A stretch of DNA of 64,000 bases from positions 211,695-275,694 of the forward strand of contig CAMYJA010000007.1 in assembly GCA_947258705.1 (NCBI GenBank), read 5' to 3'. Positions 20,806-63,975 of this stretch are shown here, one piece after another. Below the pieces are notes generated by a model. It worked only from the letters and a program-made list of their open reading frames with translations. It searched no databases and was not told where the DNA came from. Positions within the stretch are counted from its first letter, which is position 1, and every line of letters starts with the position of its first letter. The stretch comes from an uncultured Hyphomicrobiaceae bacterium. GTDB lineage: Bacteria; Pseudomonadota; Alphaproteobacteria; Rhizobiales; CAMYJA01. A program made the translations under genes and the position numbers.

Positions 20806-20978
20806 AAATGGCGGGTGCATTGGGGACAGCATTGGTGGAGGGCAGCATCGATTAAGGGCCGTTAACCGCCGGGTGCCATCTCAGTCCTTTGCGCGAATGG
20901 CCTCCGGTTCCGCTCAAGATGCAAAACCAGCCGATTGAGGTTTTACGTTGCAAGGGCTGTTCGTCACACTAAGCAGAA
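20806..20978. repeat. ~170-bp direct repeat, copy 1 (ends in a degenerate double-palindrome site)
   Basis: Aligns by eye with 24173-24351 with scattered substitutions; CCTTTGCGCGAATGGCCTCCGGTTCCGCTCA is identical in both. Confidence 0.95.
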
Positions 20979-24172: not shown

Positions 24173-24351
24173 AAATGGTGGGTGCATTGGGGGGCATTGG
24201 GGGCATTGGGGGAGGGCAGCACGATTAAGGGCCATTTACCGCCGGGTGCCGTCTCAGCCCTTTGCGCGAATGGCCTCCGGTTCCGCTCATGATGCAAAAC
24301 CAGCCGATTGAGGTTTTGCGCTGCAAGGGCTGTTCATGACCCAAGGCGGAC
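24173..24351. repeat. ~175-bp direct repeat, copy 2, ending in TGACCCAAGGCGGAC
   Basis: Direct repeat of 20806-20978; its last 15 bp are identical to 45065-45079. Confidence 0.95.
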
Positions 24352-24358
24352 CTTGCTG

Positions 24359-45064: not shown

Positions 45065-45079
45065 TGACCCAAGGCGGAC
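45065..45079. repeat. Left-boundary site TGACCCAAGGCGGAC
   Basis: Identical to 24337-24351. Confidence 0.85.
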
Positions 45080-46462: not shown

Positions 46463-46619
46463 GGCAGCCGATTCGCTCCATGTCAGGCGCGGTTTGCGCG
46501 AACCAATATTGCGCGTTGCGCCAACCGGACAAATGCGGAGGGTTAGCGGTGTTAGTTTGTGTGCAGGAGGGGGCATTGGGCGACCGACAAACAAGGAGTT
46601 TGATCGACGCTGCCCAAGC

Positions 46620-46688
46620 GTCCGCTTATGAAGGAGCTGCGGTAGTACGAACGGTTACGTGAATGACGGTGGATAACCCGGAGCGGAA
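46620..46688. repeat. Internal double-palindrome site
   Basis: GTCCGC-N13-GCGGTA, 20-nt spacer, GACGGT-GGA-TAACCC-GGA-GCGGAA; same geometry as 24281-24351. Confidence 0.6.
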
Positions 46689-46760
46689 ATGGCGACCATA
46701 TTTTTGATTTATGGTAATGGTGCCAGCTATATTTTTGATTAAGTGGGTGCCAGCCTGCGT

Positions 46761-50257: not shown

Positions 50258-50559
50258 AATGATTTGGCTTTCCTCGATACCCGCTCAGATTATCTGTGCC
50301 GGCGGATACTGCTACCACTAAAAGAAAATATGCCACCAGTTTTTGATAGTTGAAGTCTGGTACAAGCTTTGGCGTTTTCTCAATTATGGATATGGATCAA
50401 TTCTGAGATGTCAACGAGGCTTGATAATTTGAGGGCATGAAACCTTGGCCGACCGTTATCAACAGACACTTCCGTAACCGGTCTAACCCTGACATCAAAT
50501 GGCGCCGGAAACAAACACACCAGATTTGTCTGTATTTAAGACTCATTTGCACAACAAAT

Positions 50560-50619
50560 GTCCGCTCTTGGCCCAACTCTGCCAATCGGCCAATGAAAGC
50601 TTTTGGGGGAACAGCGGAA
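50560..50619. repeat. Right-boundary palindrome-family site
   Basis: GTCCGC-TCT-TGGCCC-AAC-TCTGCC, then GAAAGC-N13-GCGGAA; similar to 25207-25273. Confidence 0.75.
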
Positions 50620-59267: not shown

Positions 59268-59900
59268 ATGATGACGGCGGAAAATCAAAATTACGAGGTC
59301 TGTGTTGTTGAAGACGATCCCCTTGTCAGCAAGGGGCTAACCTCGTTGCTCGAACAAAAGGGATTTTCGGTTCAGTCATTCGCGACAGGTCATCAGATTC
59401 AAAACGAAACTTCGAGTTTGACCTGTTGCTGCGTCCTTCTCGACATCAACCTCCCGGATATCCATGGGCTCGATGTCCTGCGCAAGCTCAGATCCTGCCG
59501 CCCGGACATAAATGTCATAATGATCACCGGTCAGGCAGACATTCCGACTGCCGTCAAAGCCATGCAGCATGGCGCCCTGGATTTTATCGAAAAGCCGCCA
59601 ACAGCCGATAGGCTGATAGAAGCGATTGACCGCTCGCTGCAATTAAGTAAACAGGAAATCCAAAATCAACCTGGAGACAATGGCGAACTTCGCCCGCCAC
59701 TCGACAAGCTCACAACAAGAGAGCTTGAGGTGCTCGTGCAGCTCGTAAAAGGCCATCAACATAAAATGATCGCCCACGAGCTTGGTATTAGCCACAGAAC
59801 CGTCGAGGTCCATCGAGCACGAATCATGAAGCGTTGCGGCGCAAATTCTTTCGCTGAACTCATAAGAATAGCCGTCCTCTCCGGTCTCCAAATCGAATAG
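59268..59900 (+). CDS. FixJ/LuxR-family response regulator
   Basis: VVEDD, LLDINLP, TGQADIPTAVKAM..GA.DFIEKP and LT.RE...LGISHRTVEVHRARIM motifs. Confidence 0.93.
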   Translation: MMTAENQNYEVCVVEDDPLVSKGLTSLLEQKGFSVQSFATGHQIQNETSSLTCCCVLLDINLPDIHGLDVLRKLRSCRPDINVIMITGQADIPTAVKAMQHGALDFIEKPPTADRLIEAIDRSLQLSKQEIQNQPGDNGELRPPLDKLTTRELEVLVQLVKGHQHKMIAHELGISHRTVEVHRARIMKRCGANSFAELIRIAVLSGLQIE

Positions 59901-59944
59901 CCAAATCGAAAAATACTGAGACCAGTTATAGCGGCTACATGGAT

Positions 59945-60006
59945 TCCCTTAAGTGCTATCCCCTAATGGTTTAATGACATAACTGCATCCCTTAAGGACT
60001 ATCCCC
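59945..60006. promoter_or_regulatory. Paired 19-bp direct repeats TCCCTTAAG(TG/GA)CTATCCCC, FixJ-box-like
   Basis: Copies at 59945-59963 and 59988-60006, 43 bp apart. Confidence 0.55.
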
Positions 60007-60131
60007 AACTAGCGGCGCTTTAACCAAATCGAATAGCTTTGAATCATAGCTGGCGCACGCCGGTGCGTTAGTGGGACAGTTTGCCGGATATCCAAACGCC
60101 GACGGGCGGGTATAGAGGGGCTGTGAAAAAA

Positions 60132-60377
60132 ATGATCGAAGCTAAAGACTATATTGATAGTTGCACCGACAAAGACAGCTTACGAAAAACGGACAAAGAC
60201 ATCGTACGGAAAGCAGATAAGGACATCGTGCGAAAAGCGCTCGAATTGGCTATTGATCTCCGCTATCTCGTGGCCGACGGTACACTTAACGATCCGAAAT
60301 TTGCGATTAGCCTTGCATTCGTGCTCGAGCAATATGCTGAAGCGGAGCGCGGTAACACCGGTAACCAGCTCCCCTGA
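60132..60377 (+). CDS. Small hypothetical protein with 8-aa internal repeats
   Basis: DKDSLRKT-DKDIVRKA-DKDIVRKA; AGAGGGG RBS upstream. Confidence 0.5.
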   Translation: MIEAKDYIDSCTDKDSLRKTDKDIVRKADKDIVRKALELAIDLRYLVADGTLNDPKFAISLAFVLEQYAEAERGNTGNQLP

Positions 60378-60810
60378 AGTGTCGACGTTTTCGTAAGGAT
60401 CTATTGTGCTCTTGAAGGAGACGGTGTTCCTATTTAGCGATCAAGAGACAGATTAGGGTATTCTACGAAGTGTAACCTTGACTCATTCAATCCCTGAGGA
60501 TCAAACGGCCATTGTAAAGCCCCTTTGTTATGGGCCATTTCTTGAAAGAGTTTCAGGTGCCGGAGGACGCATGTTAAGCGCCTGATGCGGACGGATGTGA
60601 TTGTACTGTCTGAGCGGAATGGCAGCCGATCTCAAAATTTAGACGTCAAGCGCTGATCGCGCAGAATTTCACCTTTGCCTGTTTCGCAGACTAATGCGTG
60701 GATCGCGTCTCTTCCTGTCATTCAATACACTTCACATGATGCACCTGAAGCCGACAAGGACGTTTGTTTTTAGAGATGATGGTCACTCACTCAACATGAG
60801 GAGTAGACCT

Positions 60811-61443
60811 ATGAAGTATTTTGAAAAACTTATCTCTAAGACGAACAGACGCGATCCCTGGAACAAAGGTAAGCTCATCGGCCCCAAGCCACCGCTTCGG
60901 CCAAAACATGTCTGGGCGGTTCGAACCAAACTTCAGATGGAACGCCGAACAAGGGACCTGGCCCTGTTCAATCTCGCGATCGACAGCAAACTCCGCGGCT
61001 GCGATGTTGTGCGGGTTCGTGTCGAGGACATTGCGCCTCGGGGATACGCGGTCGATCGTGCCATCGTTCGGCAGAGCAAGACCGGCCGACCGGTCAAGTT
61101 CGAGCTAACCGAGCAAACACGGGAGTCGCTGGACGACCACCTTCGAGAAGTGAGCCGTGAATGCGGGCAGTATCTCTTTCCGGGACGTGGAAAGGGCACG
61201 CACCTGACAACTCGTCAATATGCACGCTTGCTTGGCGACTGGCTCGCGAGCATAGGTCTTGATCCGTCGCTGTACGGCACGCATTCCCTGCGCCGTACAA
61301 AGGCTACGCTGATTTATAAGCGCACTGGGAACCTGCGCGCCGTCCAGCTTTTGCTGGGCCACTCGAAAATTGAGAGCACAGTTCGATATATAGGTATTGA
61401 GGTAGACGATGCTCTCGAAATCGCGGAACAGGTCGACATCTGA
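60811..61443 (+). CDS. Compact tyrosine recombinase/integrase (210 aa)
   Basis: Catalytic R (DSKLRGCD), K (QSKT), HxxR (HSLRRT), H (LLGH) and Y (TVRY); GAGGAG RBS. Confidence 0.95.
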   Translation: MKYFEKLISKTNRRDPWNKGKLIGPKPPLRPKHVWAVRTKLQMERRTRDLALFNLAIDSKLRGCDVVRVRVEDIAPRGYAVDRAIVRQSKTGRPVKFELTEQTRESLDDHLREVSRECGQYLFPGRGKGTHLTTRQYARLLGDWLASIGLDPSLYGTHSLRRTKATLIYKRTGNLRAVQLLLGHSKIESTVRYIGIEVDDALEIAEQVDI

Positions 61444-61450
61444 AACACTA

Positions 61451-61474
61451 GGGCAGAGCCTACGGGCTCTGCCC
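61451..61474. repeat. Perfect hairpin GGGCAGAGCC-TACG-GGCTCTGCCC immediately after the recombinase
   Basis: 10-bp perfect stem with no U-tract on either side. Confidence 0.9.
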
Positions 61475-61519
61475 ATTCGGCACGGATGAGATCAACAGAC
61501 AATGCCGAGCGAGTATTTG

Positions 61520-61544
61520 GTCAGCATTGCACTCATCAGCTGAC
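61520..61544. repeat. Palindrome-family unit GTCAGC-N13-GCTGAC
   Basis: Perfect 6-bp arms; same geometry as the block-boundary units. Confidence 0.7.
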
Positions 61545-62393
61545 TTTTGCCCCACACCCGACGATGCCCGTAAGAACATATCCCTCGACTTCTGCTCCTG
61601 TATAATTTCTTCCAAATATATGTCTCTCTCCGTTCCGATCGCCCTATCTGTTAAGTGCTCGTAGCGTTTCTTGGTTGTGTCGACGCGTCTTGGTTATCGT
61701 CAGCGGTTTTCAGGTGGATACAGCCGAGTAATCCGGAATTGTTGCCAAGGCGAGCCTACTTTTGTCCAGGATTCCAACCATGGTTTGCCCGCCAATTATG
61801 ATCAACCACCGACCAAAGGGGGGTATTCTATTAAAAGGCTGCGTCTACATTTAATGACATGTAATCGGTTTCCCAACCGTTGTTTACGGGCTTGAACCTT
61901 ACCTAAACCGAATGACCCACCTTGCTGAATTTGGATTATTATTTGTTTTTCTATTAATTATTGGTTTCTCTATTGCTTATGCCTATCGATACAGGGCTTT
62001 TCGCCTGTCACTTGCCTGGAATTCTTGTTTACAGGCATTGATGCGCATTTAATTTGTGTTTTTGCAATTTCTATTTTTAAAAATTCCGGTATTGAAATCG
62101 GGAAAATGGCTTAACTGCTACTCACATACATATGGAACCCGCAAACTTTGGGTGCCCCCCCACCCCGGCCCCCTTTTTTACCCACTTGCCATTGAAGCCC
62201 TTAAAATTGCTGTAATGGCCTATTTGCGAGACTTTGCGCGGGTCAATGCGCGTCAATGAAGGTGAATGTAGGACTTTGTATTTTGTTACGGACGCTTTGC
62301 AAAAGGTCGACAGGGTGATCCCTTGAGTGTCGGCGGTTTTCAATTCCGAAACTGTTTCATGATTGCATGGCTGGCACCAATGAGCTTTTTACA

Positions 62394-62738
62394 TCAACGC
62401 TCTAATGTACAAATGCGCACTGATTTTCTTGTCTTTTTTCTGTGAAGCCGCCATGCATCGAAATAGCTATTGAGAAATGCGGCGCGTAAACAGGCCTTTT
62501 CATAATCCTGTCCAAGCGGTTCATTGTGCAGTGGGCAGTTTTCGCGCCGAGCCCACCAGGGCAAACACCAGTAATAGGCCCATCGCTCTGATTTAAGCTG
62601 GCGTGTCTGCAAATATCGGGGGCGATTTTCAAGCTGTCTGTTTTCGACATTCGAGTAAACCCGCCTGATTTTCCGGATGCCGACAGCATTGGCGGGCGAC
62701 AATTCCCAGACATCCGTTGCAAGAATTAGATGCGCCAT
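62394..62738 (-). CDS. Hypothetical protein resembling a phage-integrase N-terminal region
   Basis: PRY...LKS.R.AYYW..P.WAR...CPL..EPLG.DY..A..RA..LN..FDAWR pattern, recalled from alphaproteobacterial phage integrases. Confidence 0.55.
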   Translation of the reverse strand: MAHLILATDVWELSPANAVGIRKIRRVYSNVENRQLENRPRYLQTRQLKSERWAYYWCLPWWARRENCPLHNEPLGQDYEKACLRAAFLNSYFDAWRLHRKKTRKSVRICTLER

Positions 62739-62932
62739 TGATCATTCATCAGCTGTCTGAAAAACGTCTTCGCGCTTTTCAAAGAATGCTTGAAGCGGTT
62801 TTCATGCTGAATTGATGGATTTGATGATGTTTGGAAGTGTTTTGATGTTTGAGCTGGAACAGAACATTTAGACATACCTATGGTAAATATATATGGGCGG
62901 TACTTCTTGCGGAGGTCGGAGAGCCCGATCAT
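62726..62932 (-). CDS. Possible small coupled ORF (may instead be non-coding origin sequence)
   Basis: ATGA overlap with the upstream gene; overlaps the downstream start; no recognisable motif. Confidence 0.25.
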   Translation of the reverse strand: MIGLSDLRKKYRPYIFTIGMSKCSVPAQTSKHFQTSSNPSIQHENRFKHSLKSAKTFFRQLMNDQWRI

Positions 62933-63468
62933 TTGCTTGACCCCTTGTTTTTGGGCCTTTTTGCAAAACCCTGGGCAGCATTATCCGCGACGATCCGCAA
63001 ATCCTGCCGGGGTCCTCCGTAATTTGTGCGGAGGGCCTCAGTAGATTTTGCGTGGTCATTCTGTTTTTTTGGTCTTCGCCCGATGGTGAGTATTGGCCGA
63101 TCCGGTTCCCAATCGCGCCAGTCATCGGTTGGCTCCCGCCCATTGTGTTCCTCGATAGTCAGGCGATATTCCGTCGCCTTGCCTGCCACATAGCAGGCCT
63201 CATGGGTAAGGGTCAGGAATCCGCGCTCTTCGAGTTGACGAAAGGCATTGCGGGCTGTGTTTTCACTCACACCAAGAAGCTCGCAGGCATTGGCATTGGA
63301 AATCGAAAGCCTGCCGTTCCGGTCCGGCCAATAAATCCTTTGAAACTCTTCAAGGAGACATCGTGCATTGGTTGAAAGACTGCGGTAGGCGGGTGAGTTG
63401 AGCCATTCTTCATGCTTCATAATGAAGCCGCCTTTTCTTTTGAACTTCGGCCTTTTAGTTTTTGGCAT
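62929..63468 (-). CDS. Winged-helix HTH protein, putative replication initiator of a phage/satellite-like element
   Basis: LNSPAYRSLS..AR.LL, NG.LSIS...ACELLGVSENTARNAFRQLEERGFL; GGGGGAGG RBS. Confidence 0.75.
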   Translation of the reverse strand: MPKTKRPKFKRKGGFIMKHEEWLNSPAYRSLSTNARCLLEEFQRIYWPDRNGRLSISNANACELLGVSENTARNAFRQLEERGFLTLTHEACYVAGKATEYRLTIEEHNGREPTDDWRDWEPDRPILTIGRRPKKQNDHAKSTEALRTNYGGPRQDLRIVADNAAQGFAKRPKNKGSSK

Positions 63469-63700
63469 GACCTCCCCCGATCAACTGCGACGCCTTGATT
63501 TCGCGTCCCATGGGGAGAAAGCGGCATCCGTCGGAGGTGATTTCAGCAATAAGACGCCCTATCTTTTCGCCCTTTCTCAATCTGGCAATTTTCACCACAC
63601 GCGTGTGGTTGGAACGGACAAGGGCAATGCCCCAGTTAATGCAATCATAAAGACCACCCATATGTGACAACCGACCGCTGAGACCGACGTAGGTTTTCAT
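63455..63700 (-). CDS. Hypothetical protein
   Basis: ATGA overlap with the upstream ORF; overlaps the start of the HTH gene. Confidence 0.55.
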   Translation of the reverse strand: MKTYVGLSGRLSHMGGLYDCINWGIALVRSNHTRVVKIARLRKGEKIGRLIAEITSDGCRFLPMGREIKASQLIGGGHAKN

Positions 63701-63975
63701 GAGACGGCCTGCCCTGATCCCCGCGTCGCATGTGAGGCTCTGCCTTTCAGCCGCTCGGATCGACGATTTTTTTCCTCCTCGGAAAGAACCGGTTTTTTGC
63801 GAAAGGGATTAGTACCCATCCGAAAGGGCCAAAGTGCACAATCTGTCGCCACGCATTTGCGAGTCTCGGCTTTGAATCCTCCACAGCAGTCGAGGCATTT
63901 TGCTCGAATGGCTCTTAAAGGATTTTTTTTCCTGAAATTGAGGGAGAGAAATTCTAAAGGTACATCTGTAGGCAC
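63697..63975 (-). CDS. Small Cys-rich phage-type hypothetical protein
   Basis: PLRAIRAKCLDCC...C...DCALWPFRMG.NP pattern; GGGTAGG RBS and GTG start. Confidence 0.7.
   Translation of the reverse strand: MPTDVPLEFLSLNFRKKNPLRAIRAKCLDCCGGFKAETRKCVATDCALWPFRMGTNPFRKKPVLSEEEKNRRSERLKGRASHATRGSGQAVS

Follow-up and report, generated by a model that had tools for sequence, protein, structure and literature searches.

A catalytic-domain-only tyrosine recombinase and associated dif-like palindromic sites in an alphaproteobacterial genome and in homologous loci

Introduction

Acinetobacter plasmids carry pdif modules, gene modules that are bounded by sites for XerC/XerD. In the laboratory, heterospecific lox/FRT designs favor exchange of the segment between two sites over its excision. 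Simple tyrosine recombinases consist of a core-binding domain and a catalytic domain (Smyshlyaev et al. 2021, PMC8138268). The portions of that article's text considered here treat no group made up of the catalytic domain only; its supplements could list such a subgroup. The present analysis concerns a recombinase gene of this kind in a stretch of 64,000 nucleotides (nt), called the window, from an uncultured Hyphomicrobiaceae bacterium (assembly GCA_947258705.1, contig CAMYJA010000007.1, positions 211,695 to 275,694 of the forward strand), together with the palindromic sites A, B and C that accompany its homologs in other genomes. Among the papers listed by a full-text literature search, none describes this A-B-C mini-recombinase family.

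On balance, it is probable that the gene encodes a mini recombinase carried in A-B-C modules, that the window's copy is fixed in place, that its enzyme acts in trans and that the hairpin behind the gene is a 3' stem-loop of the RNA.

The recombinase and its family

The recombinase gene (60811-61443, plus strand) runs from an ATG at 60811, preceded by GAGGAG, to a stop codon at 61441-61443 and encodes 210 residues. PF00589 is its sole Pfam match (residues 46-194; 63.9 bits against a cut-off of 27.1). Alignment to the solved XerA and XerD chains assigns the catalytic residues R62, K90, H158, R161, H184 and Y193, all of which vary little or not at all among 21 aligned relatives with identity down to 41%. 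The catalytic Arg is preceded by 61 residues, and the alignment of XerA to the window enzyme begins at XerA residue 92. Canonical simple tyrosine recombinases have an N-terminal core-binding domain of about 100 residues; instead of it, this protein has a basic tail of about 29 residues, predicted to be unstructured, which bears the PWNKGKLIGPKPPL signature. The AlphaFold model (predicted local distance difference test, pLDDT, 83.7; residues 1-11 below pLDDT 50) has no secondary structure ahead of residue 31, and the rest is the catalytic fold only; its structural matches are XerA 5hxy (E = 1.1e-8), Tn1549 Int, XerH and Cre. Judged by its sequence and predicted fold, the window enzyme is an intact tyrosine recombinase with a catalytic domain only. 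An earlier note on this DNA had described it as such, with intact catalytic residues, and Pfam, the XerA/XerD alignment and the AlphaFold model all bear this description out.

The enzyme stays below the NCBIfam cut-offs of every Xer model compared, with scores of 61.7 against 220 for XerA, 58.9 against 335 for XerC, 43.4 against 330 for XerD and 32.4 against 267 for XerS. The integron-integrase model TIGR02249, which takes in the IntI-specific insertion, reaches 27.5 bits against a cut-off of 265 and matches residues 155-196 only. The N-terminal signature PWNKGK..G.K.PL, which is part of the definition of the A-B-C module family used here, is present in the window enzyme.

A stem-loop at 60781-60809 (plus strand), directly ahead of the gene, is predicted to pair the Shine-Dalgarno GAGGAG with an upstream ACTCACTC. 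It folds at -14.3 kcal/mol (z = -2.1), with 8 of 200 shuffles folding equally well, and relatives show an analogous anti-Shine-Dalgarno/Shine-Dalgarno pairing in an alignment judged by eye. No sigma-70-like promoter was found; the sole terminator-like call is the hairpin behind the gene when read on the minus strand.

The recombinase family is very large and horizontally spread. A word-indexed protein search returned at least 8000 significant relatives, the best 120 of which are 65-85% identical and 202-236 residues long, and an exhaustive search of 50%-identity cluster representatives gave 19,336 at E <= 0.001 and 1063 at E <= 1e-30. With tblastn, 2035 plasmid records from Alpha-, Beta- and Gammaproteobacteria match, with up to 68% identity among the matches listed. 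Within the window's order, the gene was found in 27 of 151 genomes and 23 of 101 genera, often in multiple copies or as broken copies. Many of the contigs that bear it measure just 0.8-1.3 kb, which suggests a repeat that breaks assemblies. In the window's own genome, one family member was found. In all such counts, of loci as of genomes, relatives are not independent of one another.

Site architecture in homologous loci

In 80 homologous loci, the gene sits in a unit of about 0.84 kb that is bounded by dif-like palindromic sites. DNA similarity between the window and these loci begins near 60850 (codon 14) and stops near 61475, where the hairpin ends. The left site, A, lies about 130 nt upstream of the ATG; it has an 11-6-11 palindrome layout and the consensus ATGTCCGCTTT GGGTCA TTAGCGGACAT. 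The inner site, B, has a 7-nt center. The right site, C, lies about 45 nt past the stop codon and reads ACGTCCGCTTT GTGCCA/GGGCCA TTAGCGGACAT. A center hexamer occupies the expected left position in 40 of 57 loci (2 of 54 controls) and the expected right position in 32 of 57 (3 of 54 controls), the controls being flank stretches 400 nt further out. The two centers are distinct: the left one is GGGTCA in 35 of 42 loci, and the right one is GGGCCA, GTGCCA or GAGCCA in 31 of 32. Examination of the homologs' flanks had been set beforehand as the test able to refute the earlier note, and both the hairpin and the site units turned out to be present there well above the controls.

The 460 kb of sequence from 81 loci contain 82 good sites, whereas the same sequences reversed contain 3; 73 of the 82 lie on the gene's strand and 9 on the opposite strand. 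Pairs of sites about 91 nt apart reveal A-B-C elements. In several loci such elements form arrays, in which cassettes are parted by gene-less A-B-C elements of about 120 nt; these gene-less elements have no hairpin.

The boundaries of the unit are visible in two related genomes (loci L050 and L051), which are 98% identical within the unit and unrelated outside it. The similarity breaks at both center hexamers, the place where, to judge from the sequences, a tyrosine recombinase would exchange strands. Stringent blastn mapping of unit ends in other loci was given up, the units being too diverged, and clean ends come from L050/L051 only. The association of gene and sites locus by locus, the architecture of the sites with its two different centers and the shared orientation are direct observations, and so are the boundaries at the centers, in one clean pair.

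A separate case is the Roseomonas gilardii plasmid NZ_CP015585.1 (L001, 246-254 kb), on which two recombinase units lie 2.8 kb apart. A ParE-type toxin-antitoxin pair precedes each unit, and the surrounding genes include catB, GST, VOC and NUDIX, a cargo typical of integron cassettes.

In the proposed mechanism, a module consists, in order, of A (11-6-11, GGGTCA), B (7-nt center), a leader in which the ribosome-binding site is predicted to be sequestered, then the recombinase gene, the hairpin and C (GGGCCA/GTGCCA). Gene-less A-B-C elements of about 120 nt join cassettes into co-oriented arrays. The enzyme would bind the arms as dimers and exchange strands within the 6-bp centers. Because the crossover centers of the outer sites differ, segments are most likely moved by A-by-A and C-by-C exchange, and such exchanges could insert, excise or swap cassette segments. 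The mismatch between the A and C centers would prevent loss of the recombinase segment, and the three adjacent palindromes may compensate for the absent core-binding domain.

The hairpin behind the gene

A perfect 10-bp hairpin with no T run behind the stem, as the earlier note had reported, lies at 61451-61474 on the plus strand, 7 nt past the stop codon; it has the arms GGGCAGAGCC/GGCTCTGCCC and a 4-nt loop and is conserved in the family. Its folding energy of -25.3 kcal/mol (z = -5.2) is matched by 0 of 200 shuffles, which puts it far outside chance expectation. Among loci with protein identity of at least 67%, 55 of 58 have a strong hairpin behind the stop codon, against 10 of 54 controls, and so do 21 of 23 more distant loci. 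The window copy thus shares the conserved hairpin past the stop codon by which the family is defined. The stem of the close group reads GGGCAGAGC/GCTCTGCCC, compensatory variants included, and RNAalifold finds double (compensatory) changes in 8 of its 9 pairs. The alignment holds 37 G.U cells and 8 A.C cells (own count from the RNAalifold table), and this bias toward G.U means that wobble pairs favor the sense strand as the one that folds. At 60-64% identity, relatives have GC-rich hairpins of unrelated sequence in place of this one, and a short T run (GCTTTC) follows many of them.

Sites in the window and elsewhere in the genome

The sites of the window's own module are recognizable but degenerate, and by their sequence this copy is probably fixed in place. 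A profile built from the left flanks of 40 other loci aligns to the window from 60743 onwards, over the right arm of an inner site and the leader into the gene; the right-flank profile stops at the hairpin. The degenerate inner site B' (TTCACA-N13-GCCGAC; 60729-60758, plus strand) owes its assignment to this alignment, which takes in its right arm and part of its center. A candidate decayed left site A' (TTCACC-N12-GCAGAC; 60666-60693, plus strand) lies about where A is expected; it is weak, matching the consensus arms at 15 of 22 positions, and its center is GCCTGT, not GGGTCA. On the right, a decayed site at 61476-61503 (plus strand) has the left arm GGCACGG in common with three relatives (L017, L019, L022) and an arm-like CAACAGACAAT directly behind it; it has no GGGCCA/GTGCCA center, and its spacing is 6 nt shorter than in those three (by eye). 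A B-type palindrome, GTCAGC-N13-GCTGAC, follows at 61518-61546 (plus strand) with 10 of 12 arm matches and a match to the junction profile described below. Flanking A (GGGTCA) and C (GGGCCA/GTGCCA) sites with intact centers, which belong to the family definition, are lacking at the window copy, and since canonical centers are absent this copy is probably immobile.

The earlier note had placed degenerate units on both sides of the gene. The motifs it named are all there (GCGGAC at 60587-60592, TTCACC-N12-GCAGAC at 60668-60691, TTCACA-N13-GCCGAC at 60731-60755 and GTCAGC-N13-GCTGAC at 61520-61544). Profiles support the second spaced unit and the downstream one; the first spaced unit stays unaligned, and GCGGAC comes from a different repeat. 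The unit pattern taken from that note has 2 matches where 0.36 are expected, and 4 of 100 shuffles attain that number, although the pattern was derived from the same two matches that it scores. Support for the hexamer units comes from homology only, not from arm match alone.

The GCGGAC at 60587 is the edge of an unrelated 78-nt repeat (60513-60590), which is 88% identical at C2:174769-174846 on another contig of the genome, recurs partly at C21:2604-2648 and has several copies in a genome of another family (G003). It holds a GGGCCA/GTGCCA hexamer, and on contig C2 a good site lies 30 nt behind it. As a part of the module this repeat was set aside, for it recurs elsewhere without the gene. Rfam has no match in 59900-62400, and no transfer RNA was found in the window.

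A junction profile was made from 9 gene-less A-B-C elements in 6 loci, all from other genomes. Its significant matches in the window are 24354-24282 (E = 3.5e-5), 50618-50556 (E = 2.7e-4) and 61494-61550 (E = 0.004; 0.17 genome-wide). The earlier note had singled out three stretches for recombination assays, at 24.3, 50.6 and 61.5 kb, and these are the only three significant matches in the window. The element at 24282-24354 (minus strand) is an orphan junction element, the A-plus-B part, reading AGGTCCGCCTT GGGTCA and then further sequence (flank-profile E = 0.008; genome-wide junction E = 0.0015). A partial second copy, 95% identical over 66 nt and with a decayed A half-site, lies at 20897-20962 (minus strand). 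An orphan A half-site, GTCCGCCTTGGGTCA, at 45065-45079 (minus strand) is the same 15-mer as at 24337. The element at 50556-50618 (minus strand) is another orphan, the B-plus-C part; it ends in GGGCCA AGAGCGGACAT (flank-profile E = 0.11; genome-wide junction E = 0.012), and a 45-nt stretch of it recurs on contig C8.

Over the whole genome, the junction profile has 26 matches at E <= 1 and 11 at E <= 0.01, against 0 in the reversed genome, most of them on the short contigs C52, C53, C55, C56, C61 and C42. The genome contains 20 full sites with 9 or more of 12 arm positions matching; its reversed sequence contains 5, and permuted arms give 4.1 +/- 2.4. Single genes lie between junction elements, an EamA transporter gene on C52 and a methyltransferase gene on C55, and a glyoxalase gene on C27 lies between two hybrid sites. 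As the sole family member found in the genome, the window enzyme is the natural candidate for the catalyst at these places; judged from sequence, it probably catalyzes exchange in trans at the canonical elements, the cassettes and the orphan remnants.

C42:1-99 and C55:1-99 are identical, and the two contigs part directly after the GTGCCA center. This is the pattern expected if one segment joins two partners at the crossover, and it may reflect either two loci or heterogeneity in the population.

Alternative explanations

Several results weigh against the proposed A-B-C module and against the place of the window's copy in it. Beside the window's gene, no site has a canonical center, and the left-flank profile leaves the position of A unaligned, the unit at 60668-60691 included. 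When hexamer-N12/13-hexamer units are scored on their arms alone, with a threshold of 9 matches in 12, the window has 132 and its reversed sequence 120, which is chance level. Genome-wide, exact half-site patterns are not enriched (5 and 6, against 3.2 +/- 2.4 for permuted motifs), and the base of the junction profile is small. Across the genomes of the order, 8 of the 27 with the gene and 15 of the 124 without it have the stringent full site (own cross-tabulation), a modest association from a single pattern that under-counts, since site dialects differ between lineages; a backwards control pattern matches 13 of the 151. One genome (G111; 87% complete assembly) has 13 sites and no gene found with the window query, another (G013) has sites and no gene found, and a third (G151) has a C-terminal gene remnant only. 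For an empty-site comparison, the genomes available as relatives have no more than the order in common with the window, each belonging to a different family and genus, and the synteny of L050 and L096, as given by a left-flank match, ends in a variable region without a site.

Arrays of sites in genomes without a mini recombinase found (G111, G013), the 11-6-11 layout, which is the architecture of dif, and the enzyme's lack of the DNA-clamping core-binding domain of canonical recombinases all fit a different explanation, in which the host's XerC/XerD act on the palindromes as they do on pdif sites and the mini recombinase is a passenger, a regulator or a relic. Against this, most loci have the gene exactly between A/B and C and on the strand of these sites; the catalytic residues are all kept across the 21 relatives, down to 41% identity; and incomplete assemblies (84-90% complete) make up most of the gene-negative genomes that have sites. 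Action of XerC/XerD at these sites with an idle mini recombinase is thus unlikely, if still worth weighing.

A second alternative holds that the window's motifs are chance, the gene a solitary relic and the hairpin an ordinary terminator, so that the gene has no site of its own. The background level of the arm-only matches and the missing canonical center beside the gene are what it would lead one to expect. It must then treat as coincidence that profiles from other genomes align to the window from 60743 onwards and at 61494-61550, and that the only other significant junction-profile matches in the window are those at 24.3 and 50.6 kb. Its probability is low.

The earlier note had suggested that the hairpin might be the primary attachment element. 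It would then be either a folded single strand like the attC of integrons or a palindromic core with 9-bp arms and a 6-bp spacer. Its stem is indeed far better conserved than the surrounding DNA, and its loop is conserved in relatives (mostly GAC). In most relatives (e.g. L029, L036, L050) the loop and 3' stem read GCGGACAT-GCTC, the first part like a site arm, and the same string stands behind site B in gene-less A-B-C elements (by eye). From this likeness, a site arm may have been the origin of the hairpin, and, as far as sequence can tell, it may have a binding role in relatives; the loop of the window's hairpin is without the arm-like GCGGACAT motif. The near-identical units of L050 and L051 stay similar for about 25 nt beyond the hairpin and diverge at the center hexamer of C, not at the hairpin; the gene-less junction elements do without it; and at 60-64% identity its place is taken by unrelated GC-rich hairpins, many with a short T run behind. 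The suggestion is not supported, and an attachment role has only a small chance of being correct. The hairpin is most likely a 3' stem-loop of the transcript, a terminator or stabilizer, rather than a recombination site, because it lies inside the unit and is absent from gene-less junctions, and because distant relatives swap in unrelated hairpins and the wobble bias favors the sense strand.

Phase variation, with a FimB/FimE-like invertase turning over a promoter or gene segment close by, is highly improbable, for all the enzyme's agreement in size (about 200 residues), its catalytic domain only and its weak NCBIfam match to a tyrosine-type DNA invertase model (NF007371), since that match reaches 17.1 bits against a cut-off of 222, the sites of homologous loci are co-oriented (73 plus against 9 minus) rather than arranged as inverted repeats, and no inverted pair of good sites surrounds a segment near the window's gene.

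Genomic context of the module

A 66-nt direct repeat (20897-20962 and 24270-24335, 95% identical) brackets a 3.3-kb segment of lower GC content that holds genes for a histidine kinase, a LysR regulator and an AhpC/redoxin protein. This segment may be a module bounded by remnants of junction elements. The 15-mer GTCCGCCTTGGGTCA, which comprises the left arm and center of site A, stands at 24337-24351 and again, 20.7 kb away, at 45065-45079 (both minus strand), and the right arms of the two copies are unrelated; a 20.7-kb element between these half-sites was considered and dropped, its content being housekeeping-like. A marginal junction-profile match (46602-46689, minus strand; E = 0.045) lies in a stretch of lower GC content (0.50-0.53).

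Upstream of the recombinase gene, the segment 57661-60361 encodes a sensor kinase, a LuxR-type response regulator and a 98-residue open reading frame. It has a paralogous copy at C42:4327-6921 with 69-76% DNA identity, and contig C42 begins with a canonical C-type site. The GC content falls to 0.47-0.50 from 58 kb to the end of the window. Downstream of the module, at 62394-63975 and beyond on the same contig (C7), lie small minus-strand open reading frames, among them one for a 179-residue protein with a weak helix-turn-helix match and one for a 92-residue Cys-rich protein. The small reading frames and the low GC content suggest a mobile-element remnant.

Significance and comparison with known systems

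The mini recombinase and its A-B-C elements may together form a natural system of cassette capture and exchange that is analogous to integrons and mechanistically distinct from them, with double-strand dif-like sites and an enzyme gene that rides as a cassette. Such a system would be widespread in Proteobacteria, Alphaproteobacteria included, and the window enzyme would serve the arrays of its genome. This broader proposal is put forward tentatively, as a serious possibility that falls somewhat short of probable. If it is true, a second and very common route of gene-cassette capture and exchange exists beside integrons. The family occurs on plasmids and chromosomes of soil, water and clinical Proteobacteria. 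The proposal, if true, would also show how a tyrosine recombinase works without a core-binding domain, perhaps by cooperative binding to three adjacent palindromes. For annotation, the 210-residue enzyme and the A-B-C elements offer a simple marker for mosaic regions that fragment short-read assemblies. In the window itself, the system would account for the low-GC accessory stretch and for three otherwise puzzling intergenic repeats.

Engineered cassette exchange with heterospecific lox/FRT sites is similar in its logic: the flanking sites have the same arms and different crossover centers. It is a laboratory design, whereas exchange is inferred here only from the consistent GGGTCA versus GGGCCA/GTGCCA centers. 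FimB and FimE resemble the window enzyme in their length of about 200 residues and in having just a short N-terminal tail ahead of the catalytic domain, where a separate core-binding domain is missing. The window enzyme differs from them in that it is no member of their profile, its family's sites are direct instead of inverted, and its setting is one of cassettes and not of a promoter switch.

The single-recombinase Xer systems (XerA/dif, XerH/difH, XerS/difSL) likewise pair one enzyme with a palindromic site adjoining its gene, and XerA, XerD and XerH are the best sequence and fold matches. The differences lie in scores far under the cut-offs, in the missing core-binding domain and in the distribution of the gene; a gene that is patchy and often multi-copy argues against a system for resolving chromosome dimers. 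The pdif sites of Acinetobacter plasmids, acted on by XerC/XerD, are similar in that short dif-like 11-6-11 palindromes bound small exchangeable modules, whose cargo includes toxin-antitoxin and resistance genes, as seen here on the Roseomonas plasmid. The A-B-C system differs in encoding its own recombinase and in having its sites in co-oriented triplets with two centers.

Integrons share with the present system a tyrosine recombinase and co-oriented cassette arrays, in which most cassettes hold a single gene and a repeated element of about 100 nt joins them. Arrays also occur without a resident recombinase, as in the clusters of attC sites lacking integron-integrases (CALIN). The differences are threefold. 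The window enzyme falls below the cut-off of the integron-integrase model and lacks a core-binding domain. Each junction comprises three double-strand palindromes (A, B and C) and not the imperfect single-strand hairpin of attC. And the place of the recombinase gene is within a junction element, with B on one side and C on the other, and not beside an attI site.

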